Source: Burkholderiales bacterium
GTDB lineage: Bacteria; Pseudomonadota; Gammaproteobacteria; Burkholderiales; Ga0077523
DNA: 52,877 bases
Assembly: GCA_036771335.1 (NCBI GenBank)
Contig: DAIPHN010000001.1
Span: 1 to 52,877 of the forward strand
Direction: 5' to 3'
A model generated the notes under the pieces. It made no database searches. It was not told where the DNA came from and saw nothing but the letters and a program-made list of their open reading frames with translations. The position numbers and the translations under genes were made by a program. This document shows positions 1,666 to 20,374 of the stretch, piece after piece (the first letter of the stretch is position 1; the number at the start of each line of letters is the position of its first letter).

Positions 1666-4218
1666 CTACAGCCGCGGGTCCACAGGCTCGCTTTCCATTG
1701 CCAGCACTCCGAAGACACACTCGTGTACGCGGCGAAGGGGCTCGCCCCTTACAAATCGCTCAAGTCCCTCGATGCCGAGCGCAAACTCGCGAATCGCGAG
1801 GCTTCGCTTTCTTGCGACGCTGCGTTCCCTCAGGCGGCCGAGATTGTCAGGCCGCGTGTACTCGGGGCCGTAGATGATCCGGAGGTACTCCGGACCGCGC
1901 GACTTGATCGCGGGCTGGCTGAGCCCCCGCGCGCCCATGTGGACAAATGCAGCTGGCTTGACCACCATGCCCTCACCTCCAGCGCTGGTGAGTTGTTCCC
2001 ACCAATCGATGACAGCGCGAGTCTGCGCCTCATCCGCCAATCGCGCGGTCAGGAACGGGGTTGCGCTCAGCAGAGACGGGTCGGCTTCACACAGACGGTG
2101 GAGCATCGTCATGTGCCAAACGTGGTCTTTGTCCACGTGGACGGCGCCCTCGCTCGCAAGCAGGTGGAATGGCGCCACGCGGATGTCATTGATGCCCGCA
2201 ACAGGCCAGCAGTAACGTCGGTATGCTTGAACGTACTGTCGTGCGGCTGTCTCGCGCTCACTGAGGGATTCAATCAGTCCCGCGACTTCAAGCCCCCGTG
2301 ACGCCGCCTGAGCTGCCAGGGCATGAGCGGCGCCCAAAGCAGCCGTGGCGGCCGCGCCCGTGGGCGCGTACTGCGTCCGCAGCAAGTCCTCGGCCTTGAC
2401 TGACCAAGGCATCACTTCGCAATCAAGGCAAAACCAGTCTGAAGCGAATTCGGACCAGAAGCCAACCCCCTCCAGCGCTTCACCAAGTCGGTCTAGCACC
2501 GCCGCCTGGAGGGCGGCGTCCGCGAAGAACCGCCGCCCGGTTCGGGTGTAGACCATTCCGCGCGCGCCGTCGTCGACACCAAACCGCGACCTCGCGACCG
2601 ACGAATCCCGCGCGATGACGACGACAGCCCGCGAGCCCATGTGCTTCTCTTCGCACACCACGCTATCCACGCCCACGCGACGGAAATAATCGAGGGCTTC
2701 TTCCGGGCGTTCGAGGAAGCCTTCCGCCGTGCTCGTTTCGCTCGGCGACATGGTGGGGGGCAGGTAGATCAGCCACTTGGGGTTCGCCGCGAAGCGACTC
2801 ATGACTTCCAGCGCCGCGATCGCGTTCTCTTCCCGGACCGTGATCGTCCGGCACAAACGGGTATCGATGATTCGCTTACCGACCACATCCTCCAGATCGA
2901 GGAGATCATCCTGCGCCTGTTGCGCCGTCAGACCATCACTCTTGGCTGGGCGTAGTGGGCGCAGCGGCTCGTAGTAAATGCGCTTGGCGGCAACGGCAAC
3001 GAGCTCTCGCTCCGGATACCGCAGGGCGGTGAGCCTGCCGCCAAACACGCAACCCGTGTCGATGCAAATGGTGTTGTTGAGCCACTGCGCTTCGGGAACG
3101 GGCGTGTGCCCGTACACGACCGTTGCCTTGCCGCGGTACTCGGACGCCCAGTTGTAGCGCACCGGCAGCCCGTACTCGTCGGTCTCTCCGGTCGTCTCGC
3201 CGTACAGGGCGAACTGGCGCACCATTGAGGACCCGCGGCCGTGCATTGTTTCGCGCAGGCCAGCGTGCGCCACTACGAGGCGCCCGTCGTCGAATACATA
3301 ATGGCTCACGAGCCCGTCGAGGAATTCGGCGCAGAAGGCACGGAACTCATTGGGGTGGCGCTTCATCTGCTCCATGGACTCCGCCAGCCCATGGGATAGC
3401 TTCACGTCCCGTCCGCGCAGGGCACGGGACAGCTTTACGTCGTGGTTGCCAGCCACGCAGAAGCCCTGACCCGCCGCGACGAGATCGGACACCAGGCGAA
3501 TCACCTCGGGAGAGTCCGGACCTCGATCGACGAGATCGCCGACGAACACCAGTTTGCGTCCCTGTGGGTGTTGAACCCTGAAGTGGCCGTCTTCCGTTTC
3601 GCAGCGATACCCGAGCAAGCCAATCAGCTCAAGTGTTTCGGCCAGACAGCCGTGTACATCGCCGATGATGTCGAACGGGCCGCGTTCGGCCTTTTTGTTG
3701 TTCCACAAAGGCTCACGGCGAATCGTGAGGCCGGTCAGGTCCTCGGGAGAGCGGAACACGTGCACATGCCGAAAGCCCTCGCGCTCGAGACCGCGAAGGG
3801 ACCGCCGCAATTGGGACACCTGATTGCGGATGACGTGGTCGCCGAAGTCGCGGTCGGGCCTTGCCTCGTTGCGCTGTCGGCAGAGCGCCTCTGGCATGTC
3901 GAGTACGAGCGCCACTGGGAGGCAGTGGTGCTCACGGGCGAGCGCAACCAGTGGCTTGCGCGCCTCGGGCTGGACGCTCGTCGCGTCGATCACGGTGAGG
4001 CGGCCAGCCCGGAGGCGGCGCGCCGCGATGAAGTGCAGAACCTCGAAGGCGTCCTTGGTGGCTTCCTGAGCATTTTCGTCGTCGGAAACCATCCCGCGGC
4101 ACGCGTCGGACGACACGATCTCGGTCGTCCTAAAGTGCTGGCGCGCAAACGTCGACTTCCCCGACCCCGAAGCACCGATGAGAACGACGAGAGCGAGTTC
4201 GGGGATCTGGATTTCCAT
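1666..4218 (-). CDS. pnkp: Polynucleotide kinase-phosphatase (bacterial Pnkp: kinase + metallophosphatase + ligase-like adenylyltransferase)
   Basis: N-terminal P-loop GASGSGKST. Calcineurin-type phosphatase motifs GDVHGC, GDLVDRGP and GNHD. A C-terminal nucleotidyltransferase region with EEKHMGSR. Length 850 aa. Its start lies 3 nt after the hen1 stop. Confidence 0.9.
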   Translation of the reverse strand: MEIQIPELALVVLIGASGSGKSTFARQHFRTTEIVSSDACRGMVSDDENAQEATKDAFEVLHFIAARRLRAGRLTVIDATSVQPEARKPLVALAREHHCLPVALVLDMPEALCRQRNEARPDRDFGDHVIRNQVSQLRRSLRGLEREGFRHVHVFRSPEDLTGLTIRREPLWNNKKAERGPFDIIGDVHGCLAETLELIGLLGYRCETEDGHFRVQHPQGRKLVFVGDLVDRGPDSPEVIRLVSDLVAAGQGFCVAGNHDVKLSRALRGRDVKLSHGLAESMEQMKRHPNEFRAFCAEFLDGLVSHYVFDDGRLVVAHAGLRETMHGRGSSMVRQFALYGETTGETDEYGLPVRYNWASEYRGKATVVYGHTPVPEAQWLNNTICIDTGCVFGGRLTALRYPERELVAVAAKRIYYEPLRPLRPAKSDGLTAQQAQDDLLDLEDVVGKRIIDTRLCRTITVREENAIAALEVMSRFAANPKWLIYLPPTMSPSETSTAEGFLERPEEALDYFRRVGVDSVVCEEKHMGSRAVVVIARDSSVARSRFGVDDGARGMVYTRTGRRFFADAALQAAVLDRLGEALEGVGFWSEFASDWFCLDCEVMPWSVKAEDLLRTQYAPTGAAATAALGAAHALAAQAASRGLEVAGLIESLSERETAARQYVQAYRRYCWPVAGINDIRVAPFHLLASEGAVHVDKDHVWHMTMLHRLCEADPSLLSATPFLTARLADEAQTRAVIDWWEQLTSAGGEGMVVKPAAFVHMGARGLSQPAIKSRGPEYLRIIYGPEYTRPDNLGRLRERSVARKRSLAIREFALGIEGLERFVRGEPLRRVHECVFGVLAMESEPVDPRL

Positions 4219-4221
4219 GGG

Positions 4222-5634
4222 TCAGGCGGCTTCAAAGACGGCCATCTGCGTCGGGGGGCCAACGGTCTCGTCCACTGCACCAATGGCGTCGTACCGAACC
4301 GTGTAGCCGAATCGCGCCGCAATGGCTTCAGACCATTTCAAGAATTCTTGCCTCGTCCACTCGAAACGATGGTCGGGATGCCGGAACTGGCCGGCGGAAA
4401 GCGTCTCAAACAGCACGTTGTATTCGGCGTTCGGTGTGGTCACCACAACAGCGCGGGGCCGGGCATGCTCGAACACCACACGCTCCATGGCCCGAAGCCG
4501 TGCGGAATCGAGGTGTTCAATCACCTCGATCAGGGTGGCCACATCCAACCCCTCAAGGCGGCGATCGCGATACATCAGAGACCCGTGAATGAGCGTCACC
4601 CTGCTGCGAGCGGACGGCGCCAGTTGGTCGAGCCGAAGACGCTCCGCCGCGCGCTCGAGCGATCGAAGCGATACGTCCATGCCAGTGATTCGGGTGAGCT
4701 GCTTCAACGGCATGAGCGCGCGGATGAGGTGCCCCTCGCCGCAACCCAGATCGGCCACACTCTGCGCACCGAGGAGCGCCACCTCGCCGGCCACTTTCGC
4801 CATTCGTTGCGCGTTTAGACTGATCCCCTTCTCGATCAACTCTTCGCGCCCCGCCAATGGCATTACCGTATCCTCGTGCGCCTCGTCTGTATCTCCGGCG
4901 CTCGACGCCAGGCGATCGATGGCCTCCCGCGCGAGGCTCTTGCGGTGTTTCAGGTAGCGGCGTGCGATGGCTTCGCGCGCCGGATGCAGCGGCAGCCACT
5001 CGCCGCCCCGCCGAAGCAGCTTCTCCACCTCGTCCTCGCCGACCCAGTAGTGCTTCTCGTCGTCAAGGACTGGAATGAGAACGTTGAGATGGGCCAGAAG
5101 ATCCTTCAGCTTCAACGTGCCGCGCAGCCGGAGTTCGCAGTACCTGCTCGGCCCCCATTCCGGGAAACGCTCATCCAGGGGAAGAGGATTAACAGTAACC
5201 GCGTAGCCAAGGGGCTCGAAGAGCTGCCGGACCATGGACTCGCCGCCACGGCTTGGAAGCACAGGCAGGGTCGCCTCCAGAGGGATAGGCGATTCCGCCA
5301 GCGCAGGGCGATCCCTCGAACGGCCCGTGAGTGCGGAGCTGAAGACCTCAGAGATCGCGACCGAGAGGAAGGACGATGCAACGTACGGGCGATCATTCAC
5401 GTACTGAGTAAACACCCCGCCATCGCCGGTCGGCCTGGCCTTGCGGCGGACCACCCCGATGGGGTCAACTTCCAGCAGCAGGCATGCTGTGCACCGCTCG
5501 GCGGTTGCCTCCGGATAGAAGACCGTCGCAGAGCCGAATGACAGATCGAAGCGATGAACCCGACCGGGGTTCTTGAATAGCAGATACCCAAGATCGGTGG
5601 CCGGAGCCGACGTGGATGTGATAGTGAGCAGCAT
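4222..5634 (-). CDS. hen1: 3'-terminal RNA ribose 2'-O-methyltransferase Hen1
   Basis: MLLTITSTSAPATDLGYLLFKNPGRVH is the typical bacterial Hen1 N-terminus. The C-terminal SAM-MTase motif is VADLGCGEGHL. I chose Met73 of the 542-aa track ORF as the start. Confidence 0.9.
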   Translation of the reverse strand: MLLTITSTSAPATDLGYLLFKNPGRVHRFDLSFGSATVFYPEATAERCTACLLLEVDPIGVVRRKARPTGDGGVFTQYVNDRPYVASSFLSVAISEVFSSALTGRSRDRPALAESPIPLEATLPVLPSRGGESMVRQLFEPLGYAVTVNPLPLDERFPEWGPSRYCELRLRGTLKLKDLLAHLNVLIPVLDDEKHYWVGEDEVEKLLRRGGEWLPLHPAREAIARRYLKHRKSLAREAIDRLASSAGDTDEAHEDTVMPLAGREELIEKGISLNAQRMAKVAGEVALLGAQSVADLGCGEGHLIRALMPLKQLTRITGMDVSLRSLERAAERLRLDQLAPSARSRVTLIHGSLMYRDRRLEGLDVATLIEVIEHLDSARLRAMERVVFEHARPRAVVVTTPNAEYNVLFETLSAGQFRHPDHRFEWTRQEFLKWSEAIAARFGYTVRYDAIGAVDETVGPPTQMAVFEAA

Positions 5635-6041
5635 CTTCGAATGATGGCACAGGCCTTGGAAATCCGGCATTGCGAACTCAAGCGAAAAGCCTTCCGGGTT
5701 GTAGATCTGCAAGCAGGGTTTCCAGCACTCCAGGTGGCCGGGAACGTGTAGCAGACCCGGCGGCCTTTCAGCGCCAGTGCCATTCCAAATCCGGGGATCG
5801 GACCCGCGTTCGCATGGTGGTTGAAATGGAGGGTTCGGCAGCCACGTCATTTTCGGCGGCGAGGTCGGTGAGCCTCCGATTCGTCAGGGCGCAGTGTTGT
5901 TCAATCAAGGTATGGATTCGCTCAACCATGGCATTGCCGGCAAAACTGTGTCCGCGTCATCCCGTACCCACATCTTCCCTTCCGGCCAAGGCCCGAGCCA
6001 GCTGCGCCTCTGATGTGCGGCGCGCTCGTTTTGGAGACCCC

Positions 6042-6618: not shown

Positions 6619-6646
6619 ATCCGCCCCCAGGCCTGAAGGCGCGGAG

Positions 6647-6935
6647 CATGCGCGCTGCAGCGCTCGCGCGAACCGGTGCGGGAATTGCCGTTGGAGCTCG
6701 GAGTCTGATCCGGGAGGAGCACGGCAACGGTTCCGGCAGAAACGAAAAATGCGCTCGGTCAGCCGACGCTCAGGGGCCGCAGGATGCGTCCGGTAGACGC
6801 TTATCCGGGCCAGTGCCCTGCTCGAATCGCAGCATAGGGGGAGGTCCGCCTTTCCAGTGCGGTTGACCGCTCGAACCGCGTTGAATAGACTGCGAAAACG
6901 GTTTCCCCATTCTCGAAATCTGAGGTGTTTCTCCG
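6647..6935 (+). repeat. Repeat copy A (full length, promoter intact)
   Basis: It aligns without gaps to copy B at an offset of 5235 nt (6678-6813 vs 11913-12048). By hand count about 107 of 136 positions are identical. It shares blocks with copies C, E and F. Confidence 0.8.
6863..6891 (+). promoter_or_regulatory. Sigma70-like promoter inside repeat A (TTGACC - 17 nt - TAGACT), facing the cyclase/PEGA gene
   Basis: The -35 is TTGACC at 6863-6868, the spacer is 17 nt, and the -10 is TAGACT at 6886-6891. Nearly the same sequence is present in copy C. Confidence 0.5.
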
Positions 6936-7138: not shown

Positions 7139-8506
7139 GTGAGCGGCTCCACGAACCGGATGCCCATGCCACCGAGCGGCGTTTTTGAAATCATGCCCAC
7201 GCCGCCCGAGGATATCCCCGCGCATGCCGCGGAAAGTGCCGCCGCCGACCTCGATGCGCCAGCCGGGGGCACCGATCGAGACGCAGCAGCTGACGGCATC
7301 GATCGCACCTTCGTCTGCAGCGTGTTGACGGTCGACATCGCGGCTTACGCGCGCAAGCCGGTGTCTGAGCAGATCCTGCTGAGGGAGCGATTCAACGCAA
7401 GGGTAGCGGACGCCATCGCCGACCTTCCGCCCGACGATCGCATCATCCTCGACACCGCAGGCGGCGTGGCCATCAACTTCCTTGGTGATCCGTCGGATGC
7501 CCTTTCCGTAGGCATTGCGCTGCGCGACGCGTTTCGCCGTCCCGGCAGGAATGGACCGCGCCTGGAGGTGCGCATGGGCTTGAACCGCGGACCCGTGCGA
7601 CTCGTCAAGGGCCCTGAGGGCCAGCCCAGCATCATGGGAGACGGGATCGATGTCGCCCAGCGCCTGATGACCTTCGCGGAGCCGGGGCAGGTAATCGTGT
7701 CGCGGTCATTCTTCGACGCGGTTTCCCGGTTATCTGCGGACTTCGCGCAGATGTTCGAGTACGTCGGCCTCCGCACGGACGAGCACGTGCGCGAGCATGA
7801 GGTGTGGGAAGCGGTCGACGGCACCCCCAGTGAGGAGACCGCAGGCTCGGGTCATGCCCGCGTCGGGCGAGGTGCCCGGGCCGGCTCGGCGCAGCCCAAG
7901 CCGCCGCCCCGTTCTCCCTGGCTGCGCAACCGGCGTCTCGCCTACGCTGCCTCGGCTGTCTCGGTGGTGCTCCTCGTCAGTGTGGTGATGCTCTCGCTGC
8001 CGCGCGGGCAATCCGATCCACCGGCTGCCGAGACGGCCATTGTCGACGCGACGCCCGCGCTCCAGCCGCTAGCCCCGCCTGCACAGACGCAGACCCGGGT
8101 GGTAGATCGGCCTGCGGACACGAAGCCACAGGCGCCAAGGGCAGCCAGCTCTCCGGGCCGTGAACCCGGTCACACCACCACCACCGCCGCCGCCGCCGCC
8201 GCGCCGAGCCGCGCCGCGAAGCCCGACCAGCGGGCCGACCCCGGTGCCGACAAGGCTGCCGGCTCCGCGCGAGCGTCCGCTCCGGTCAATACCGTGGAGA
8301 AGGCGGAGATCACGCTGGCCGTGAGCCCATGGGGCGAGATCTACGTGAACGGCGCCCGGGTGGGTGTGACCCCCCCCATGCACGCGGTGGAGGTTGCTCC
8401 CGGCCGAGTGGAGATCGAGATCCGTAACGGCAGCTTCCCAAGCCATGTGACTATCCTGGATCTCGAGCCGGGGCAGCGGGTGCGCCTGAAGCACAAGTTT
8501 TACTGA
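7139..8506 (+). CDS. Membrane protein with an N-terminal class III nucleotidyl-cyclase homology domain, one TM helix, a Pro/Ala-rich linker and a C-terminal PEGA-like domain
   Basis: FVCSVLTVDIAAYARK...RMGLNRGPVRLV...IMGDGIDVAQRLMTFAEPGQVIVS resembles the cyclase fold. The TM helix is AYAASAVSVVLLVSVVMLSL. The C-terminus ITLAVSPWGEIYVNGARVGVTPP...GRVEIEIRNGSF is PEGA-like. The start is uncertain (GTG 7139, or ATG 7160/7166). Confidence 0.7.
   Translation: MSGSTNRMPMPPSGVFEIMPTPPEDIPAHAAESAAADLDAPAGGTDRDAAADGIDRTFVCSVLTVDIAAYARKPVSEQILLRERFNARVADAIADLPPDDRIILDTAGGVAINFLGDPSDALSVGIALRDAFRRPGRNGPRLEVRMGLNRGPVRLVKGPEGQPSIMGDGIDVAQRLMTFAEPGQVIVSRSFFDAVSRLSADFAQMFEYVGLRTDEHVREHEVWEAVDGTPSEETAGSGHARVGRGARAGSAQPKPPPRSPWLRNRRLAYAASAVSVVLLVSVVMLSLPRGQSDPPAAETAIVDATPALQPLAPPAQTQTRVVDRPADTKPQAPRAASSPGREPGHTTTTAAAAAAPSRAAKPDQRADPGADKAAGSARASAPVNTVEKAEITLAVSPWGEIYVNGARVGVTPPMHAVEVAPGRVEIEIRNGSFPSHVTILDLEPGQRVRLKHKFY
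8174..8200 (+). repeat. In-frame trinucleotide repeat (ACC)4(GCC)5 within the cyclase/PEGA linker
   Basis: Read directly from the sequence. It encodes TTTTAAAAA. Confidence 0.9.
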
Positions 8507-8707
8507 TCCGACCCGATGATGTGGTTGCGCGGTGAATCTGACGATCAGGACCTGCAAGCAGCTGCGGACCGGGTCGCAGCCGGTGGCGAGGATTGCATGT
8601 TTTCGCCGCTTCGGTGGGCGCCTTGCCTTCGTTCGCCCCGGCTTCTGAGAATGGATGGCCCGGTTTAGGTAGGTGTCGAGCCGCTTGTCGAGGCGGTGTG
8701 TGAGCAG

Positions 8708-9274
8708 CTAGAGCACCTCGATGTCCCGCCTGGTGTCGGCCGGCCTAGCCTTCATGGGTTTGCAGTGATGGGCCACGGGTTTGCCAGGATTAGGAAAGAC
8801 ATTCTTGCGCCGGCAGCTGCGTTTGCCCGCCAGCACCTGCAGGCACCTGATCGGCCTTTCGCGGTGTAAGGCCCCGACAACGATCATCCAACTCGCGCGG
8901 CCCTGCGTATTGGAAGTGGAGATCATCGACAGCGCCTGGCGCGTACCACCCGGTTCCGTCATCACCGGCGTAGCGCCACGCCGGTCTTGGCGGGCGTCGC
9001 GTGCGCTGGTGTTGACCAGTATCGTATTGTTGCCCCAGTGAATCTCGTCACCTTTGGCGCGACTGGCCCGCCCGGGGCGCAGGGGTTGCCCGTTCCCTTC
9101 AGGCGGACCTCGGTCTGCGGGCTTGATGCCCGGCCAGCTCAGTACGGCATGCAGATCGATGATCTTGCGTACCCTCAAGCGGCTCAGGGCTGTCACGACC
9201 ATGATGTCCACACTCGCGGTACCCAGCAAAGGCAGTTCCGCGACCGGCTTGCGCCTCTCGTGCAATTGCGCCAA
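8708..9274 (-). pseudogene. Degenerate ORF of foreign-looking, lower-GC DNA. It could be a helicase-type or mobile-element gene remnant, but its identity is unresolved.
   Basis: The frame opens immediately after a stop with only a TTG start. The composition is unlike its neighbours. There is only faint resemblance to SF2 helicase motifs V/VI (IMVVT...Q.LRPGRASR). It sits between two functionally related genes. Confidence 0.25.
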
Positions 9275-9727
9275 GCTTTAGCAGCGAGCGTGTTTCTTGC
9301 CCGCGAAGCCCCTTCTCTATTGGGCTCCAGAAGTCCAGATTTCATGCGACCCGCTTAACAGGAGCCCGCAAGGGAAGGTCATTCGATACGCTGGATTCGA
9401 GCAGGCTAACCGTGATCGAAGCAATTCAACGCGTTCCCCGAGCAGCCTTGGGGCTTGCCGGTCTTGTTGCGGCGCCTCGCCGGGCGGAGGGTGCGACGCG
9501 CCCGCACGGCGCGCTCAGGCTGCGCGAGCGATTTCTCGAGCGAACCGCCCGGACGGTTTCCGGGCAGCCAAAACCGCAACGGAGGCGACGGCAGGCGCAC
9601 CGAGCCTCGATCGAGACGACCGAATCCGCGCCACGGATGGCACGCCACGTGCTGGGCTCCCGTGCGCTGTTCCCGGCCAAACGCCGCACGGCAGCGGCGA
9701 TCGATGCGCATGCGGGCAGCTAGAGCC

Positions 9728-10147
9728 ATGGGCGCCCGAATGGCTCTGTCGAGCCTGTTGCCGCTGCTTGCCGCGCTGGTGCTGGCAGGGTGCGCGGCCG
9801 ACCCTGTCAGGGAAGCCCGGAATACCGTTCGCAACCTCTCGAACCCGTTTGGCAAGAGCCAAGCCCAGCGTACCCTCGAAGATGGCATCCTTGATTATGA
9901 AGAGGGGCAGTACATGTCCTCCGCGCGCAAGCTTCGCGTGGCCATCGACGAGGGGCTTCGGCCGAGCGACCGCATCACGGCTCACAAGTATCTCGCCTTC
10001 ATCAGCTGCGTTTCGAATCGCGAGAGCCAGTGCCGGGAGGAGTTCAGGCGGGCGCTTCAGCTCGACGCGCGCTTCGAGCTCTCCCCCGCGGAAGCGGGCC
10101 ATCCCATCTGGGGCCCGGTGTTCCGCAACCTCAAGGCCTACCGGTGA
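9728..10147 (+). CDS. Lipoprotein with a conserved C-terminal HKYLAF..C....C..F..AL....F.L...E.GHP.WGPVF motif. It resembles lipoproteins I associate with kinase/T6SS-linked families (TssQ/TagQ-like), but this is tentative.
   Basis: The signal peptide has the lipobox LVLAGC. The stop TGA at 10145-10147 overlaps the GTG start of the kinase gene (GTGA). Alternative starts are at 9704, 9710 and 9740. Confidence 0.75.
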   Translation: MGARMALSSLLPLLAALVLAGCAADPVREARNTVRNLSNPFGKSQAQRTLEDGILDYEEGQYMSSARKLRVAIDEGLRPSDRITAHKYLAFISCVSNRESQCREEFRRALQLDARFELSPAEAGHPIWGPVFRNLKAYR

Positions 10148-11418
10148 GCCAGGCCGTCCAACGCCCAATCTCGGGAGGGGGGGGCGCTCGCCCCTTTGAC
10201 GCGTCTGCGTCCGCCCTTGCCCCAGTGGTCAGCCAGCTCGGCCGCTACGAAGTCGTGGCTCGCCTCGGAGAGGGGGCCATGGGCACGGTGTTCAAGGCCC
10301 GCGACCGGCTGCTCGATCGCCTGGTCGCCATCAAGACGATAAACCTTACCTCTCCCATAGAGGACATGGCCGAGGTCGAAGCGCGCTTCTACCAGGAAGC
10401 GCGGGCCGCCGGTGGCCTTAACCATCCAAACATCGTGGTGATCCATGACGTGGGCAAGATCGGTGAAATTGCGTTCATGGCCATGGAATACCTGGAGGGG
10501 CAGGAGTTGCGCGCCCTCCTGTCCCGGCGCGGCGCGCTGCCCGCGGCGGAGGCCGTGAGTATCGCTGCGCAGGTGGCGGAGGGGCTTTCCTTCGCCCATG
10601 CGCGCGGCGTGATCCACCGCGATATCAAGCCCAGCAATATCATGATCGGGCGCGACGGCCGCGCGAAGATCACCGATTTTGGCATTGCCCGCCTCTGCAC
10701 TTCCGAGATCAAGACCATGACGGGGGCAATCTTCGGCTCGCCGCGCTACATCTCGCCGGAGCTGGTAGCGGGGAGGCGCGCCGACCACCGCAGCGATATC
10801 TTCGCCCTGGGAGTGGTGCTCTACGAGATGCTCGCTGGCGAGCCGCCCTTCCAGGCAAACAACTTGCACGGCCTGATGTACCAGACCATGAACGCTGAGC
10901 CGCCAGCGCCCAGCAGCCTCCGCCCGGCGATTCCTCCCATTCTCGACTTCGTGGTGGCCAAGGCTCTCGCGAAGTCCGCCGACACGCGTTACCAGCATGC
11001 GCGCGAGTTCGCCGAAGACCTGCGCGCAAGCGTTGAGGAGGGCCGCGCCAGCGCCGTCGAGCAGCGTATCCGGGCGAGCCTCGCGAGGCCTGCCTCGCCG
11101 CGCCTGCCGGAGTCGGAGACGGGCCGCGCCGGTGGCGACAGCAGCGCCCCCGCCCCGGCGGGACCGGTCATCCTGAATCTGGTCGCCTCCCCGCCCGCGT
11201 ACACGCTGTCCAGGGCATTCGACTCCACCGATGCCACCATGCGCCTCGTCTCCCTGGGCAGCCGGCCAGTGGAGCAGCCCGCTGGGCAAGCGCCCTCCCC
11301 GGGGGCGCAGCTCCTTGCGGAGAGACCTGCGTTTTCTCCTACCAGGTTGACCAAGTGGCTCTGGGCCGTGGCCGCCTTTGGGACGGTGGCCACCGTGGGC
11401 ATCCTGCTGCTGCGCTGA
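10144..11418 (+). CDS. Hanks-type Ser/Thr protein kinase with a single C-terminal transmembrane anchor
   Basis: GEGAMGTVFKA, VAIK, HRDIKPSN, DFG and SPE motifs are present. The last 20 residues, WLWAVAAFGTVATVGILLLR, form a TM helix at the extreme C-terminus. The in-frame GTG at 10144 was chosen because no Met precedes the kinase domain. Confidence 0.9.
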   Translation: MSQAVQRPISGGGGARPFDASASALAPVVSQLGRYEVVARLGEGAMGTVFKARDRLLDRLVAIKTINLTSPIEDMAEVEARFYQEARAAGGLNHPNIVVIHDVGKIGEIAFMAMEYLEGQELRALLSRRGALPAAEAVSIAAQVAEGLSFAHARGVIHRDIKPSNIMIGRDGRAKITDFGIARLCTSEIKTMTGAIFGSPRYISPELVAGRRADHRSDIFALGVVLYEMLAGEPPFQANNLHGLMYQTMNAEPPAPSSLRPAIPPILDFVVAKALAKSADTRYQHAREFAEDLRASVEEGRASAVEQRIRASLARPASPRLPESETGRAGGDSSAPAPAGPVILNLVASPPAYTLSRAFDSTDATMRLVSLGSRPVEQPAGQAPSPGAQLLAERPAFSPTRLTKWLWAVAAFGTVATVGILLLR

Positions 11419-11720: not shown

Positions 11721-12175
11721 CATGCAGCGCGCTGCAGGGCTGGCGCCATGGATGAGCAGGGCGCGGCTACTCAATCTTGTGCTCCACATCGACACGGGGC
11801 GCAGCGCGCTCGGGGGCCCGCTGAGGAGCCTCGCGTCGGTGGCAGACCCGGTGGTCGCGCGCATGCCCCGCACGGGGTCTGCCTGCGCCCCGCAGTGCCC
11901 CCCTGTACCCGCGCGGGAATTGCCGCTCGCCCTCGGAGGCTGAACTGGGAGAAGCACGACAAGGGTGCAGGCAGAAACGACAAGCGCGCTCGCTCGGCCG
12001 AGGCCCGGGATCTGCGGGATGCGGCCGGTAAACGCTGATCCAGGCCGGAGCCACGCGTGAGTCGCTGCTTCACGGGAGGAACCTTCGCCCTGCCGAGCGG
12101 GCGACCGGACCGAGGCACAGGAACGACGGTAGCAGGCTGCGCAAGAACTTTTCGGGATTCGTATTCGCTTCGCGG
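11721..12175 (+). repeat. Repeat copy B (full length but degraded, with an internal insertion of about 170 nt and a decayed promoter)
   Basis: See copy A for the alignment. TGCAGCGC lies at 11723-11730. The -35 is changed to GCGACC and the -10 region is disrupted. Confidence 0.75.
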
Positions 12176-12505: not shown

Positions 12506-13114
12506 TCACGCGGCCTCCTCGTGGGGGTCAAGCGGCCGCAGCAACCGTTTGGACACCGCCGCCGCGAATGCGCGCGGCGTGAAGCGTCTGACAAATACAA
12601 GCATGCTCCTCGCGCACCTGACCGCCCTCGCCATACCGCCGTCGGGCGTCAGATCCGCGCTACCGCGCGGGTTTGCGCAGCTTGCCTCGCCGAAAGGGTG
12701 CCAGCCGGCAATGCGCCGTGGGTCGACCCCGTCGAACAACGTGGTATCGGTCGAATCAGGCGACTGGCCGCTGATGCGGCCCCCGAAATCTTCGATCTCC
12801 CTGGCCAGCGCATCGGAGAAGTTGACCGCCAACGCCTTGGATCGACCGCGTGCCGTGAAGAACGGCGCCAGCCAAGAGGCGGCCGACAACGCGACGTTCA
12901 GGACCCGCCCCGGCCGTAGCCGTTTCATCTGTGCACCGTACCGGTGGGAGGACCCGGCAACGCCCATCACGTTAAGCTGCAGCATCTGCCGCAGGCTTGC
13001 CAGATCGAGACCGTTGCCGTTGCCGGCCCCGGTCAGCAGCGTTGTCGTATTCGAGTGCAATCGCGCCTCCTTCGTGCGGGGAGACTCACCATTTGTCAGA
13101 AACATCGTTACCAC
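12506..13114 (-). pseudogene. Decayed SDR-family oxidoreductase remnant
   Basis: LLTGAGNGNG (glycine-rich NAD motif) is followed almost at once by LNVMGV...RVLNVALSAAS...SKALAVNFSDALAREI. About 70 residues between the motifs are missing and the catalytic Tyr position is not Tyr. Confidence 0.45.
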
Positions 13115-16088: not shown

Positions 16089-16220
16089 AAGGGGGGCGGC
16101 GCTAAGGGGCATTTGCAGCGCTTGCCGGGATCCGCGCCACGGCCCGCGCATATGTGCCAGGAGAGATACGACAGCGGTGTCGCCGTTACCGGCACGCGGG
16201 TTCGGCCAGCGGTTCCCGGC

Positions 16221-16256
16221 AGTACCGGCGGTACCGGTGGTACCGTGGGTTACGCT
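16221..16256 (+). repeat. Four tandem 9-mers (AGTACCGGC GGTACCGGT GGTACCGTG GGTTACGCT) inside repeat C
   Basis: Read directly from the sequence. The region has three KpnI-like GGTACC cores. Confidence 0.8.
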
Positions 16257-16321
16257 GATCCTGAGCCAAGCGGCGTTGAATGGTCACTGCGGAGGAGGAT
16301 GCCGGGCGCGGCTGGGCAAGG

Positions 16322-16350
16322 TTGACCGTGCGAGGCACGGTGAATAGAGT
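16322..16350 (+). promoter_or_regulatory. Sigma70-like promoter inside repeat C (TTGACC - 17 nt - TAGAGT), facing the SNF2/SWIM operon
   Basis: The -35 is at 16322-16327 and the -10 at 16345-16350. The architecture matches the promoter in copy A. Confidence 0.5.
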
Positions 16351-16702
16351 CCAGGGATGCGGGAACTTCAGCTCGAACTCCCTCTTTACCGCTGCCATGC
16401 CAGCCGGCCCAAAGTGGCGCGTTTACTCGCGTTGCGGGGCAAGGGGGCGACCTGAGCGATGCAACGTCGACCGTCCGTCGGCAGCCTGGCCGGGCGATCG
16501 AATGGCGCATGCGCTGCCTGGAACGCGGGGGCGGGCAGGTCTGTTGTGCAACGGGCGGGTTGCGCCACGCCACGGAGCGATCCGTCCGGGCATCATTCCC
16601 GTCTTCCGCCGCGCCAGTTCTCCCCCCTGGCGTCCTCTGGAGCGCCGATGATGCTGCCGGAATCATGCGACGGGAGCGCCTGCCGCTGTTTCCCGGTGAA
16701 GC

Positions 16703-19438
16703 ATGGGAAGCGTTGCCGGGGGGCGAATGGCGATGACGGCCGCAGCCGCGAAGGGGCGCCTCACCCCGGTGCTCACACCCCACGGTCGTCTTGCTGTTGT
16801 CCCGCAGGACGATGCCGCGGCGCTCGAACCGTTTCTCGCGGCGAGGATCCGCGAGGCGTTCGACCGCGGCAGTGGTCACGGAATCCTGCATCTCGGCGCA
16901 GCCGAGGTAGGTCAGGTCTTGCCACCCGCGTTCACTTACTGGCAAGAGCTCGGCGTGCGCTTCGTGACCGCGCTTTGCACGAGACCGGACATCAAGGAGC
17001 GCGAGACCCAGCTTCCCGCGCCCCCGGACGATCTGAACACGCTTGCCGCCGCATCGCCCATGATGCCGGGCGCCGAGTACCTGACAGCCGATGTGCTTCG
17101 GGGCCTCTGGGCCGACCTCGGCGAAGCCTTCGCTGCCGAGCACTCACGATCGAAGCTCGCGCTCCCGGACTTCCTGAAGCGGCTGAATCCCGCCTGGAAC
17201 GTGGTCGGTCGCGTGTATTTCAATCTCGCTGAAAACCCCAAGGACGAGCAGGCACCGTTCGCCTTCCTCGCCACCTACACCCATCGGCTCTCGATCCACG
17301 GAAAGGCGCAGCACCTGCCGCTCGGTCACGCCCTGCGCCAGTATTCATCCTCCGCCAACAAGGACAAGCTCCTGTCGCTACTCCTGCCGGTGCAGCGCGC
17401 GGCCGGTCACTGCCCCTGGCTTAGGGAGATGGTCGATTCCGGCGAGATTTTCCATCCGCTTCGATGGTCGCCTCAGGAGGCGTTCCAGCTGCTCGGGGAT
17501 GTGACGCTGTTGGAGCATGCCGGGATCATGATCCGTATGCCGGCGCGCTGGCGCGCGGGACGACCGGTGAGGCCTCAGGTGGCAGCCACGGTCGGAGCCC
17601 AAGCGCCATCATCGCTGGGTACCGATGCGTTACTCGACTTCCACATGGAGGCCACTCTCGACGGCCAGACGCTCACGCGGGCCGAGCTGAAGCAGCTCCT
17701 CGCTGGCGCGAGCGGTCTCGCGCTGATTCGGGGCCAGTGGGTCGAGGTCGACCGCGAGCGGCTGGCGCGGATGATGGACCGCTTCCAGAGAGTCGAGCGG
17801 CTCGCGGCCGAGGGCGGCCTGTCATTCGCCGAGGCCGTGGGCATGCTCGCCGGCGCGGCGCTGGGAAAGGGTGCGGCAGCCACCCCGGATGATCCCGACT
17901 GGTCTAGGGTGGTCGCCGGCCCCTGGCTTGCCGACACCCTCAGGGCGCTGCGTTCGCCCGACGGGCTCGCCAAGGTCAGTCCGGGCCGTGAACTCAAGGG
18001 CACGTTGCGTCCCTACCAGGAGGTGGGAGTGCGCTGGCTGAATCTGCTGTCGCGTCTCGGGCTCGGTGCATGCCTCGCGGACGACATGGGCCTCGGGAAG
18101 ACCATCCAGGTGCTCTCGCTGCTTCTCGTGCTGCGCCGAACGCAGCGCGATTCCGCGCGGCCCAGCATTCTGGTGGCGCCGGCCTCGCTGCTCGCCAACT
18201 GGGCGGCCGAAATCGAGCGTTTCGCACCGACGCTGAAGGCGATGATCGCGCACACTTCGGCCATGACCGGTAACCAGCTGAAATCCGCCGAAACCGCGCG
18301 CCTGGATGGCATCGATCTCGTGATCACGAGCTACGGTTCGCTGCTGCGCGTCCCCTGGTTCACGGCGACGCAATGGCGCCTGGCGGTGCTCGATGAGGCC
18401 CAGGCCATCAAGAACCCGCACGCCAGGCAGACGCTAGCAGCGAAAAGACTCGCAGCGCGGGCGCGTATCGCGCTCACCGGCACGCCCATCGAAAACCGTC
18501 TCGGCGACCTGTGGTCGATCTTCGACTTCATCAATCCGGGCCTGCTCGGCTCGGCCAAGACCTTCACGAACTACACCAAGGGCCTGGCCGGAAAGCCGAA
18601 CCCTTACGGCCCGCTGCGCGAGCTCGTGCGGCCGTACATACTGCGCCGGCTCAAGACCGACCGCAGCGTCGTCGCTGACCTGCCCGACAAGACCGAAGTC
18701 AAGGCGTTCTGCCAGCTCACCCGCGGGCAGGCGGCGCTCTACCAGCAGGCGGTCGAGGCGCTGGCCGAGCAGCTTGACGACGCCGAGGGCATCAAGCGCC
18801 GGGGGCTGGTGCTCGCGTTCTTGATGCGCTTCAAGCAGATCTGCAACCACCCCTCGCAGTGGCTGGGTGACGGGGCGTGGGCCGAGAACGATAGCGGCAA
18901 GTGGACCCGCTTGCGCGAGCTGGGCGAGGTGATCGCCGCGAAGCAGGAGAAGGTGCTTGTGTTCACCCAGTTCCGCGAGATCACTGCGCCGCTCGCGGCG
19001 TTCCTCGGCGGTGTGTTCGGCCGGCCCGGGCTGGTGTTGCACGGCGAGACGGGGATCAAGAGACGCCGGGCGCTGGTCATGCAGTTCCAGGAGGATGAGT
19101 CGGTGCCGTTCTTCATCCTGTCGCTCAAGGCTGGCGGGTCAGGCCTGAACCTCACGGCGGCCTCGCACGTAATTCACTTTGACCGCTGGTGGAACCCGGC
19201 GGTGGAGAATCAGGCTACGGACCGCGCGTTTCGCATCGGGCAAGCGAAGAACGTGCTGGTCCACAAGTTCATCTGCCGGGGCACGGTCGAGGAAAGGATC
19301 GACGAGCTAATCGAGTCGAAGAAGCAGCTCTCGCAGGAGCTGCTCGAAGGCGGCGCAGAGCTGAACCTGACGGAGATGAAGGACGAAGATCTGATCAGGC
19401 TCGTCGCGCTGGATTTCAACGCCGCGATTGAGGAGTAA
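16703..19438 (+). CDS. SNF2-family helicase/ATPase with a long bacterial-type N-terminal extension
   Basis: LADDMGLGKT (motif I), DEAQAIKN (II), LTGTPIENRL, FILSLKAGGSGLNLT and QATDRAFRIGQ (VI) are present. The start could instead be ATG 16727. Confidence 0.9.
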   Translation: MGSVAGGRMAMTAAAAKGRLTPVLTPHGRLAVVPQDDAAALEPFLAARIREAFDRGSGHGILHLGAAEVGQVLPPAFTYWQELGVRFVTALCTRPDIKERETQLPAPPDDLNTLAAASPMMPGAEYLTADVLRGLWADLGEAFAAEHSRSKLALPDFLKRLNPAWNVVGRVYFNLAENPKDEQAPFAFLATYTHRLSIHGKAQHLPLGHALRQYSSSANKDKLLSLLLPVQRAAGHCPWLREMVDSGEIFHPLRWSPQEAFQLLGDVTLLEHAGIMIRMPARWRAGRPVRPQVAATVGAQAPSSLGTDALLDFHMEATLDGQTLTRAELKQLLAGASGLALIRGQWVEVDRERLARMMDRFQRVERLAAEGGLSFAEAVGMLAGAALGKGAAATPDDPDWSRVVAGPWLADTLRALRSPDGLAKVSPGRELKGTLRPYQEVGVRWLNLLSRLGLGACLADDMGLGKTIQVLSLLLVLRRTQRDSARPSILVAPASLLANWAAEIERFAPTLKAMIAHTSAMTGNQLKSAETARLDGIDLVITSYGSLLRVPWFTATQWRLAVLDEAQAIKNPHARQTLAAKRLAARARIALTGTPIENRLGDLWSIFDFINPGLLGSAKTFTNYTKGLAGKPNPYGPLRELVRPYILRRLKTDRSVVADLPDKTEVKAFCQLTRGQAALYQQAVEALAEQLDDAEGIKRRGLVLAFLMRFKQICNHPSQWLGDGAWAENDSGKWTRLRELGEVIAAKQEKVLVFTQFREITAPLAAFLGGVFGRPGLVLHGETGIKRRRALVMQFQEDESVPFFILSLKAGGSGLNLTAASHVIHFDRWWNPAVENQATDRAFRIGQAKNVLVHKFICRGTVEERIDELIESKKQLSQELLEGGAELNLTEMKDEDLIRLVALDFNAAIEE

Positions 19439-19441
19439 GGC

Positions 19442-20374
19442 ATGGGATACCACAATGGTTATGGCTTTCCTCGCTACGTGTCCGTCGCCGAGGGGCGTCG
19501 CAAGGCCGCGCGCGAGTTGCGACAGATCGAGAAGAAGGGCCATTCCACCTCCCCGGTGGTGATCGAGGGCCACACCATCGCCAGCACGTTCTGGGGCAAG
19601 GCCTGGTGCGAGAATCTGCGCCGTTACAGCGACTTCTCGAACCGCCTGCCGCGTGGGCAAACCTATTTGCGCCATGGCGCGGTCGTCGATTTGCAGATCG
19701 CGGCTGGCAAGGTCACAGCGCTTGTCGCCGGCTCCAGCCTCTACAGGGTGGCTGTGAAGGTGTCGGCCGTGCCACAGGTGCGCTGGGCCTCGATCTGTAC
19801 CGACTGCGTGGACGGGATCGAATCGTTGGTTGATCTGCTGCAGGGCCGCCTGTCCCGGAGCGTGATGGCGCGCCTTTGCCAGCGGGAGCGCGGGCTTTTC
19901 CCTGCGCCCGCCGAATTGGAGTTCTCCTGCAGTTGCCCTGACTGGGCCTCCATGTGCAAGCACGTAGCGGCGGTGTTCTACGGCATCGGTGCGCGGCTCG
20001 ACAAACAGCCCGAGCTGCTCTTCAAGCTGCGCAAGGTCGACGAGAGGGACCTCATCGCCAAGGCGGGCAGGGGGCTGCCGCTGGCGAAGCGGCGGCCGTC
20101 CTCGGACAGGATCCTGGCGGCCCCTGGCCTCTGCGAATTGTTCGGCCTGGAGCTGGGCGCCCTGCCCAGCGAGACTGCGGTGGAGGCCGCGCCAGCGCCG
20201 GAAAAGGCCGCCCGTGCCCGTCGCGTGGCGAAGTCCCGGGCAGACCCCGCGGCGCTCGCACCGCCAGCAAAGGCCGCGATGCGTCCAGCGTCCACGGGTG
20301 CGAAAGCGAAGCCGCCGAAAGCAAAGGCAGAAGCTGGGGTAAGCGCCAGGAAGAGCAGGACCGTGAAGCGGTGA
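19442..20374 (+). CDS. SWIM zinc-finger protein with a Lys/Ala/Pro-rich basic C-terminal tail
   Basis: The SWIM CxCx(n)CxH signature is FSCSCPDWASMCKHVAA. GGAG lies upstream of an ATG placed 3 nt after the SNF2 stop. The tail is AKAKPPKAKAEAGVSARKSRTVKR. Confidence 0.9.
   Translation: MGYHNGYGFPRYVSVAEGRRKAARELRQIEKKGHSTSPVVIEGHTIASTFWGKAWCENLRRYSDFSNRLPRGQTYLRHGAVVDLQIAAGKVTALVAGSSLYRVAVKVSAVPQVRWASICTDCVDGIESLVDLLQGRLSRSVMARLCQRERGLFPAPAELEFSCSCPDWASMCKHVAAVFYGIGARLDKQPELLFKLRKVDERDLIAKAGRGLPLAKRRPSSDRILAAPGLCELFGLELGALPSETAVEAAPAPEKAARARRVAKSRADPAALAPPAKAAMRPASTGAKAKPPKAKAEAGVSARKSRTVKR

Follow-up and report, generated by a model that had tools for sequence, protein, structure and literature searches.

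The closest described relatives of the locus analysed here belong to type VI secretion systems (T6SSs). In Acidovorax (Paracidovorax) citrulli, TssW is a protein of the outer membrane whose gene lies between ppkA and fha; it binds PpkA's periplasmic domain and determines the site of assembly of PpkA and the T6SS (Pei et al., mBio 2025, PMC12607579). The envelope pair formed by a TssQ-family lipoprotein and a PEGA domain is so far known from T6SS control only. We analysed a 52,877-nucleotide stretch of DNA from a Burkholderiales bacterium (assembly GCA_036771335.1, contig DAIPHN010000001.1; referred to as the window), in which this pair occurs in a trio of genes and appears to be wired to a different output. 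Gene 1 encodes a membrane protein with a class III cyclase-homology domain and a PEGA-type ectodomain, gene 2 a TssQ-family lipoprotein and gene 3 a tail-anchored Hanks-type Ser/Thr kinase. Our interpretation is that the trio encodes an envelope-spanning signalling unit, which is degenerate in the window genome; we put the probability of this at roughly 0.6. One membrane unit would then bring together two signalling chemistries in the form of a Hanks kinase and a cyclase-type domain. A preliminary description of the locus did not recognise the combination as a known system. This holds for the trio itself, since no paper describing a cyclase/PEGA-TssQ-kinase trio was found, but T6SS-linked relatives of the module are known. 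Literature searches on PEGA plus cyclase plus kinase yielded no papers, and those on tail-anchored Hanks kinases and on "T6SS-associated lipoprotein" yielded nothing relevant.

The three open reading frames (ORFs) were found at the positions given in the preliminary description (Table 1). All are intact, with a coding-type G+C content at third codon positions (GC3) of 0.79–0.80. The source gene call for gene 1 begins further downstream, at Met 7166, and comprises residues 10–455. The TGA stop of gene 2 and the GTG start of the kinase gene overlap in the sequence GTGA at 10144–10147, as had been reported. Conservation of the neighbourhood was determined from a scan of species-representative genomes, in which relatives of gene 1 were present at more than 560 places; the best 80 loci were kept for the analysis of synteny. 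These loci come from betaproteobacterial metagenome-assembled genomes (labelled Burkholderiales, Usitatibacter, Sideroxydans, Gallionella and Nitrosomonadales), and their gene 1 homologs are 34–47% identical to the window protein; the set is not near-clonal. Using the window proteins as tblastn queries, a TssQ-like gene was detected in 77 and a kinase gene in 74 of the 80 loci, and the loci without one or the other match include several short or cut contigs. Both partners were always encoded immediately 3' of the gene 1 homolog, on the strand that this homolog occupies. The distance between gene 1 and the TssQ gene in the relatives has a median of ∼9 bp (range −23 to 46, with a single outlier of 234 bp). 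The commonest arrangement of the TssQ-kinase junction is a 4-base overlap of the ATGA/GTGA type (14 loci), and nearly all gaps at this junction are smaller than 25 bp. No further conserved member of the operon was found; the housekeeping genes upstream (fadD/ETF/ACAD) and downstream (radA/alr) are present in only 20–30 loci. Seemingly conserved ORFs 3' of the kinase gene were rejected as antisense artefacts of radA. The gene 1 family as a whole comprises 540 representative clusters (50% identity) at E ≤ 1e-30. The three genes form one conserved operon, which is tightly packed in many Burkholderiales, Usitatibacter, Sideroxydans and Gallionella genomes. Overall, the data support the module proposed in the preliminary description: the genes are co-located in other genomes, the cyclase-homology domain of the window is non-canonical upon alignment, and the kinase ends in a hydrophobic helix (see below for the latter two).

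The architecture of the gene 1 protein that had been proposed, i.e. a cyclase-homology domain, one transmembrane helix, a Pro/Ala/Thr linker and a PEGA-like domain, is borne out by structure prediction and amino acid composition. The AlphaFold2 model, calculated with 67 homologs as input, has a predicted local distance difference test score (pLDDT) above 90 over residues 57–225 and 389–453. The Pfam profile Guanylate_cyc (PF00211) did not match gene 1 even at an E-value of 0.1, and the ortholog of locus L003 also fell short of the threshold (19.9 versus a cut-off of 21.9). Because of this, the class III fold was established via sequence and structure searches of the PDB. The domain matched PDB entry 3mr7 with a phmmer E-value of 1.5e-7, and every one of the top 50 Foldseek matches in the PDB was a class III cyclase (target TM-scores 0.64–0.80, two full-length fusion chains excepted). 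The C-terminal domain of the window protein scored 14 bits with the Pfam PEGA profile (PF08308), which is below the cut-off of 20.8; orthologs pass this cut-off (33 bits) and most homologs have a precomputed PF08308 match. The beta-sandwich of the window nevertheless appears plainly homologous to the domains that pass. The motifs PWGE and GxSPP of the PEGA domain are invariant. The protein is predicted to have an N-in/C-out orientation, given the Arg-rich flank on the N-terminal side of the transmembrane helix. The length of the linker differs widely among the gene 1 homologs; in the window it contains the run TTTTAAAAAA (8174–8200), which is encoded by a trinucleotide microsatellite.

Gene 2 was previously described as a lipoprotein with the lipobox LAGC and left without a family. 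The lipobox stands (LVLAGC, with the Cys codon at 9791–9793) and is kept in nearly all 77 homologs; the protein can now be assigned to the TssQ family of T6SS-associated lipoproteins (NCBIfam NF038027, 105.1 bits against a cut-off of 65), which has T6SS-linked relatives. The mature part is predicted, with pLDDT values above 93, to form a short helical domain of the tetratricopeptide-repeat (TPR)-like type that starts at about position 9848. Its closest folds are the designed TPR protein 1na3 and PilF (2ho1), both weak matches with E-values of ∼0.04. Two cysteines and the motif AEAGHPIWGP are invariant among 47 TssQ homologs. An Asp at position +2 is absent from the window lipoprotein and from all homologs in the alignment inspected, and sorting to the outer membrane is therefore expected by the E. 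coli rule. The Bacteroidota protein that is also named TssQ was considered and rejected as the same protein; it has a transmembrane helix and an elongated helical shape (PMC10781749). In some lineages TssQ is doubled: two tandem TssQ domains in one ORF, extending ∼240–275 residues past the lipobox Cys, were seen in L036, L037, L041, L055, L060, L068, L069, L071, L076 and L077, which are Usitatibacter-type and some other Burkholderiales loci.

The kinase domain of the gene 3 product (approximately 10246–11043) scored 188 bits with Pfam PF00069, and all kinase motifs are present in the translation: the Gly-loop LGEGAMG, VAIK, the HRD motif (HRDIKPSN) and DFG. NCBIfam TIGR03903 (TOMM system kinase/cyclase fusion) matches the kinase part only. 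In agreement with the preliminary description, the hydropathy profile shows no periplasmic sensor domain and a C-terminal helix as the sole membrane element, which stops one residue short of the C-terminus. This hydrophobic tail helix, predicted to insert into the membrane, is kept in every complete ortholog examined, with 0–6 residues beyond it. When compared with 69 orthologs, the window kinase is changed at 6 of 95 conserved columns (Y50F, P55R, Y78V, Y111F, Q207L and S221A), the most deviations of the 70 sequences; Q207L and S221A fall in the activation loop, and the catalytic motifs are intact.

In the proposed mechanism, the putative outer-membrane lipoprotein would bind the PEGA domain of the gene 1 protein, and the linker of ∼100 residues would allow this domain to span the periplasm and reach the lipoprotein. 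The contact would be relayed via the transmembrane helix of gene 1 to a cytoplasmic dimer of the cyclase-homology domain. The kinase, held at the membrane by its tail anchor, would act together with the cyclase-homology domain, either by phosphorylating it or by being docked and controlled by it. If it is phosphorylated, T213 in the invariant segment RTDKHVREHE of the gene 1 protein is a candidate site. Seen this way, the unit resembles, in split form, the kinase-transmembrane-PEGA plus TssQ receptor by which T6SS assembly is driven in Acidovorax and Delftia.

The cyclase-homology domain of the window has lost residues on which catalysis depends. Homodimeric class III cyclases require both metal-binding aspartates and the Asn/Arg pair. 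The degenerate positions of the window copy are F64T, S71A, G107A, D108G, D158G, N160E, N164S and N171D; in a census of 199 close homologs, F64, G107, D158, N160, N164 and N171 are invariant, and S71 and D108 are each kept in 198. The first metal-binding residue, D66, is present. The second metal site is Gly108 (DTAGG versus DTGDG in the family and TTGDG in 3mr7), and the position of the transition-state Asn, which is Asn in each of the 199 homologs, is occupied by Asp171 (GDGIDVAQRL); Arg175 of the N-x-x-x-R motif is kept. Both replacements had been pointed out in the preliminary description and were recovered in the phmmer alignment. The substrate-specifying pair is Leu104/Ser164 in the window and Leu/Asn across the family, instead of the Lys/Asp or Glu/Cys pair. 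Since the second metal Asp and the transition-state Asn are absent, the window domain would not be a cyclase and is almost certainly catalytically inactive. Either it is retained in the role of a scaffold or sensor, or it is heading for loss. The idea of a pseudo-cyclase put forward earlier thus applies to the window copy and to minority lineages, but not to the family, in which the Asp and Asn are conserved as given above.

The changes are concentrated in one domain. Taking as conserved those columns that are kept in at least 98% of the other sequences, the window copy of gene 1 deviates at 12 of 67 columns, against 4 for the next worst of 200 sequences and a median of 0. All of these fall in the cyclase-homology domain (12/57), with none in PEGA (0/10); TssQ likewise shows none (0/15). 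The closest congener, L088, whose kinase and TssQ proteins are 71% and 74% identical to those of the window (tblastn), carries the canonical cyclase residues. Domain rates were compared by averaging the identities to eight outgroups; the values for the window and L088, respectively, are 60.8% and 79.0% for the cyclase domain, 57.9% and 65.4% for PEGA, 55.5% and 60.8% for TssQ, and 67.4% and 76.2% for the kinase. The drop relative to L088 is much larger for the cyclase domain than for the other three, which indicates an acceleration specific to this domain.

Inactive copies have arisen repeatedly in the family. A canonical D66, D108 or N171 is missing from 24 of the 147 representatives whose domain is complete; on a tree calculated after masking of the trait columns, this distribution takes no fewer than 11 changes. 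L096, another genome of this genus, carries DTDNG at the metal site as well as N164A, N171D and S71A, and its copy is not closely related to that of the window. In the dead-cyclase representatives L113 and L114, TssQ and the kinase are kept directly downstream, and a third representative has the same gene layout. The dead copies, that of the window included, can be regarded as natural mutants that point to the function which the cell keeps. One may speculate, as a possibility that we hold to be the less likely one, that the cyclase-homology domain serves mainly as a scaffold or regulatory partner of the tail-anchored kinase rather than as an enzyme, the trio being a T6SS-independent, natural "kinase + pseudo-cyclase" receptor. 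If true, this would be the mirror image of the animal receptor guanylyl cyclases (pseudokinase plus cyclase), fed by an outer-membrane TPR lipoprotein via PEGA.

In the window, genes 1 and 2 are separated by 1197 bp, and a transposase remnant of the IS630 family of insertion sequences (IS) lies within this gap. It aligns to residues 3–79 and 165–345 of a 345-residue IS1471-family transposase (37–43% identity), with ∼85 residues deleted internally and an in-frame stop at 8708. The insert was sought elsewhere in the assembly and in the relatives and proved to be single copy and absent from all relatives; no convincing terminal inverted repeats of the remnant were found. The remnant indicates that an element of the IS630 family landed in the interval between genes 1 and 2 and subsequently decayed. 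It was not mentioned in the preliminary description of the module, whose genes are co-located in the relatives but interrupted by the remnant here.

The insertion bears on the strongest of the alternatives, namely that the window module is merely decaying: the IS630 element would have uncoupled gene 1 from genes 2 and 3, selection would have relaxed, and the changes in the cyclase domain would mark the onset of pseudogenisation instead of a scaffold function. Besides the position of the remnant, this would account for the lower similarity of all four domains to the outgroups when compared with those of L088, for the window kinase being the most deviant of its orthologs, for the presence of other decayed genes in the surroundings (e.g. 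a truncated short-chain dehydrogenase) and for gene 1 being found in no more than 12 of the 24 genomes from this genus. Against it, the three ORFs are intact with coding-type GC3 values, the changes are concentrated in the cyclase domain rather than in PEGA or TssQ, and other dead-cyclase lineages retain a compact three-gene operon. We consider plain decay possible but less likely. Several further points weigh against an envelope-spanning signalling unit as proposed above. The outer-membrane location of the lipoprotein, which is presumed, rests on the E. coli sorting rule. That TssW is a TssQ-family protein is suggestive, on the grounds of synteny and a similar C-terminus: the C-terminus of TssW deduced from the published primers (..LPGKKAP*) resembles that of Acidovorax TssQ (..NRKTP*). 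The canonical-looking members of the family may, given their Leu/Asn pair, also make neither cAMP nor cGMP. Finally, the mild excess of changes in the kinase is as compatible with a decay of the entire unit as with rewiring.

The relation of the signalling unit to type VI secretion was assessed by searching for TssC, which was not found in the window genome (92% complete) and was detected in a single one of 30 other carrier genomes. On the window contig there was no match for FHA, PP2C or TssC, consistent with the earlier remark that no PP2C, FHA or T6SS gene lies nearby. The trio is independent of T6SS. The FHA and PP2C matches of the genome are confined to contigs C36, C39 and C143, and four other Hanks kinases are also encoded on other contigs. 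The only PP2C match adjoins an FHA-domain protein (C36:13552–15139); these are possible trans partners of Hanks kinases. Members of the TssQ family (TssQ_fam) were found in 146 of the 401 genomes sampled from the order (∼36%, all three genomic contexts described below pooled), in 2 of 400 genomes sampled evenly across the class (the window genome being one of the two) and in none of 14 control genomes. Annotation pipelines will call the lipoprotein "T6SS-associated" in genomes that lack a T6SS.

The TssQ_fam genes sampled occur in (i) true T6SS clusters, (ii) orphan kinase-transmembrane-PEGA units and (iii) the present trio. The T6SS-embedded relatives are L100, L108 and L111. The gene order in the Delftia-like locus L108 is hcp, kinase-transmembrane-PEGA, a 262-residue TssQ-like plus PEGA protein, TssQ, Fha, PP2C, TssJ, TssK and TssL. 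Acidovorax sp. NCPPB 3576 (L111) has the same order; the C-terminal end of its PpkA is a PEGA domain, and a TssQ-like/PEGA protein (272 residues) and a TssQ_fam lipoprotein are encoded between ppkA and fha. In the orphan unit L109, divergent FHA and PP2C genes are followed by kinase-transmembrane-PEGA and then TssQ, with no T6SS genes nearby; its kinase is 56% identical to that of the window, on a par with the orthologs of the trio. The succession of a kinase-transmembrane-PEGA gene and a TssQ_fam gene was observed in L108, L109 and L110, in line with the statement in the preliminary description that PEGA is often fused to Hanks kinases. The domain fusions, kinase to PEGA and TssQ-like to PEGA, argue that TssQ, PEGA and kinase work together, and the TssQ/PEGA pair looks like a reusable envelope sensor. 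The exported TssQ-like/PEGA proteins of 262–272 residues between ppkA and tssQ (L108:7279–8067 and L111:5181–5999) score 52.7 bits, below the cut-off, with the TssQ profile; a fusion of this type is seemingly not described in the TssW paper (PMC12607579). In four further loci (L101:6508–7779, L102:8537–9814, L105:8505–10397 and L107:6359–7951), TssQ_fam was found beside proteins of 420–630 residues that end in a PEGA-like segment; their N-terminal parts have no Pfam match, and the neighbours are rpoC (L101, L102) and gltB (L107). These may represent a fourth wiring of the TssQ/PEGA pair.

One could argue that the lipoprotein and the kinase form a T6SS threonine-phosphorylation regulator that controls in trans a T6SS whose genes lie elsewhere. 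The NCBIfam name suggests this, and the TssQ_fam score above the curated cut-off and the existence of the T6SS-embedded relatives speak for it. This is very improbable in view of the distribution of TssC, the operon without T6SS-type Fha or PppA (the only PP2C and FHA genes being on other contigs) and the sequence of the kinase: the T6SS-linked PpkA kinases are only ∼29–31% identical to it. Least probable of all is that gene 1 has nothing to do with the lipoprotein-kinase pair and lies upstream of it by chance, for although the two are 1.2 kb apart in the window, with an oppositely oriented IS remnant and no promoter or terminator match in the gap, they lie next to each other in 77 of 80 loci, where they overlap or are separated by single-digit gaps, in several families and with differing flanks.

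The features of the locus are listed in Table 1. The promoter-like site given there is the only one upstream of gene 1. A third, more diverged copy of the non-coding repeat is present at approximately 16105–16365; further copies elsewhere in the genome were not found by blastn, and Rfam and tRNA scans of the window gave nothing. Upstream of the module lies a complete Pnkp/Hen1 RNA-repair pair (1666–5850, minus strand; PNKP_ligase 586 bits, Hen1_L 371 bits). Downstream are the truncated short-chain dehydrogenase gene (12506–13114, minus strand), which covers positions 88–188 only of the adh_short profile and is probably a gene remnant, and genes for a SNF2-family helicase (with DUF3670) followed by a SWIM zinc-finger protein (16703–20374).

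Table 1. Features of the three-gene locus and its immediate surroundings (positions in the window).
Feature	Position	Strand	Basis or remark
Non-coding direct repeat, copy A, 199 bp	6646..6844	+	74% identical to copy B
Sigma-70-like promoter match TTGACC-17-TAGACT	6863..6891	+	consensus match only; at end of repeat copy A
Gene 1: cyclase-homology/transmembrane/linker/PEGA protein, 455 residues	7139..8506	+	ORF listing, from GTG 7139
Class III cyclase-homology domain, residues 55-228	7301..7822	+	AlphaFold2 fold; active site degenerate
Transmembrane helix, residues 262-285	7922..7993	+	hydropathy 2.41; AlphaFold2 helix 260-285
Disordered Ala/Pro/Thr-rich periplasmic linker, 103 residues	7994..8302	+	pLDDT <50; 26 Ala, 16 Pro, 10 Thr
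PEGA-type beta-sandwich ectodomain, residues 389-455	8303..8503	+	AlphaFold2 pLDDT >90, 7 strands
Decayed IS630-family (IS1471-like) transposase gene	8528..9298	-	alignment to IS1471-family transposase
Gene 2: TssQ-family lipoprotein	9704..10147	+	NF038027 match, signal peptide, lipobox
Gene 3: Hanks-type Ser/Thr kinase	10144..11418	+	Pkinase match; start overlaps gene 2 stop
C-terminal tail-anchor helix of the kinase, residues 405-423 of 424	11356-11412	+	only hydrophobic segment of kinase
Non-coding direct repeat, copy B, 3' of kinase gene	11881..12079	+	brackets the module with copy A

When the trio is compared with known systems, one of the closest is the TssW-PpkA-Fha type of A. citrulli together with the ppkA/TssQ-PEGA/tssQ/fha/pppA blocks (NCPPB 3576, Delftia-like). 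An outer-membrane TssQ-family partner, a PEGA ectodomain and a Hanks kinase are encoded side by side in both, with the reservation that the equivalence of TssW and TssQ_fam is suggestive only. In contrast to that type, the PEGA domain of the trio is carried by the cyclase-homology protein, the kinase is tail-anchored and has no ectodomain, the operon is without Fha, PppA and T6SS, and the kinase domains are ∼29–31% identical. The TagQRST-PpkA-Fha1-PppA pathway of the Pseudomonas aeruginosa H1-T6SS resembles the trio in its logic, in which a lipoprotein of the outer membrane provides input across the periplasm to a Hanks kinase of the inner membrane (PMC12607579). The trio differs from it in lacking TagR/S/T, Fha and PppA, and in having a kinase without the periplasmic domain that is found in PpkA. 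The orphan kinase-transmembrane-PEGA plus TssQ modules (L109) contain the closest kinase relatives and have the TssQ partner and PEGA in common with the trio, again with no T6SS nearby. There, however, the ectodomain is fused to the kinase and FHA/PP2C genes accompany it, whereas in the trio the ectodomain is on the cyclase-type protein and neither FHA nor PP2C is linked.

Class III cyclases such as those of Silicibacter pomeroyi (3mr7), Mycobacterium tuberculosis (Rv1900c, 1ybt/1ybu) and RhGC (5oyh/6sir) share their fold with gene 1 (target TM-scores of 0.7–0.8). The window copy keeps the first metal Asp and the phosphate-binding Arg, and most family members also the second Asp and the Asn. 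Unlike these enzymes, the window copy is without the second metal Asp and the Asn, the family has the Leu/Asn specificity pair, and PF00211 stays below threshold. Kinase/cyclase fusion proteins and the animal receptor guanylyl cyclases (ectodomain-transmembrane-pseudokinase-cyclase) also pair a protein-kinase-type domain with a cyclase-homology domain. In the trio, unlike in these proteins, the domains are on separate membrane proteins, and the dead partner in the window is the cyclase. Overall, we rate the trio as a TssW/PpkA-type envelope Ser/Thr-kinase input module combined with a class III cyclase-homology domain.

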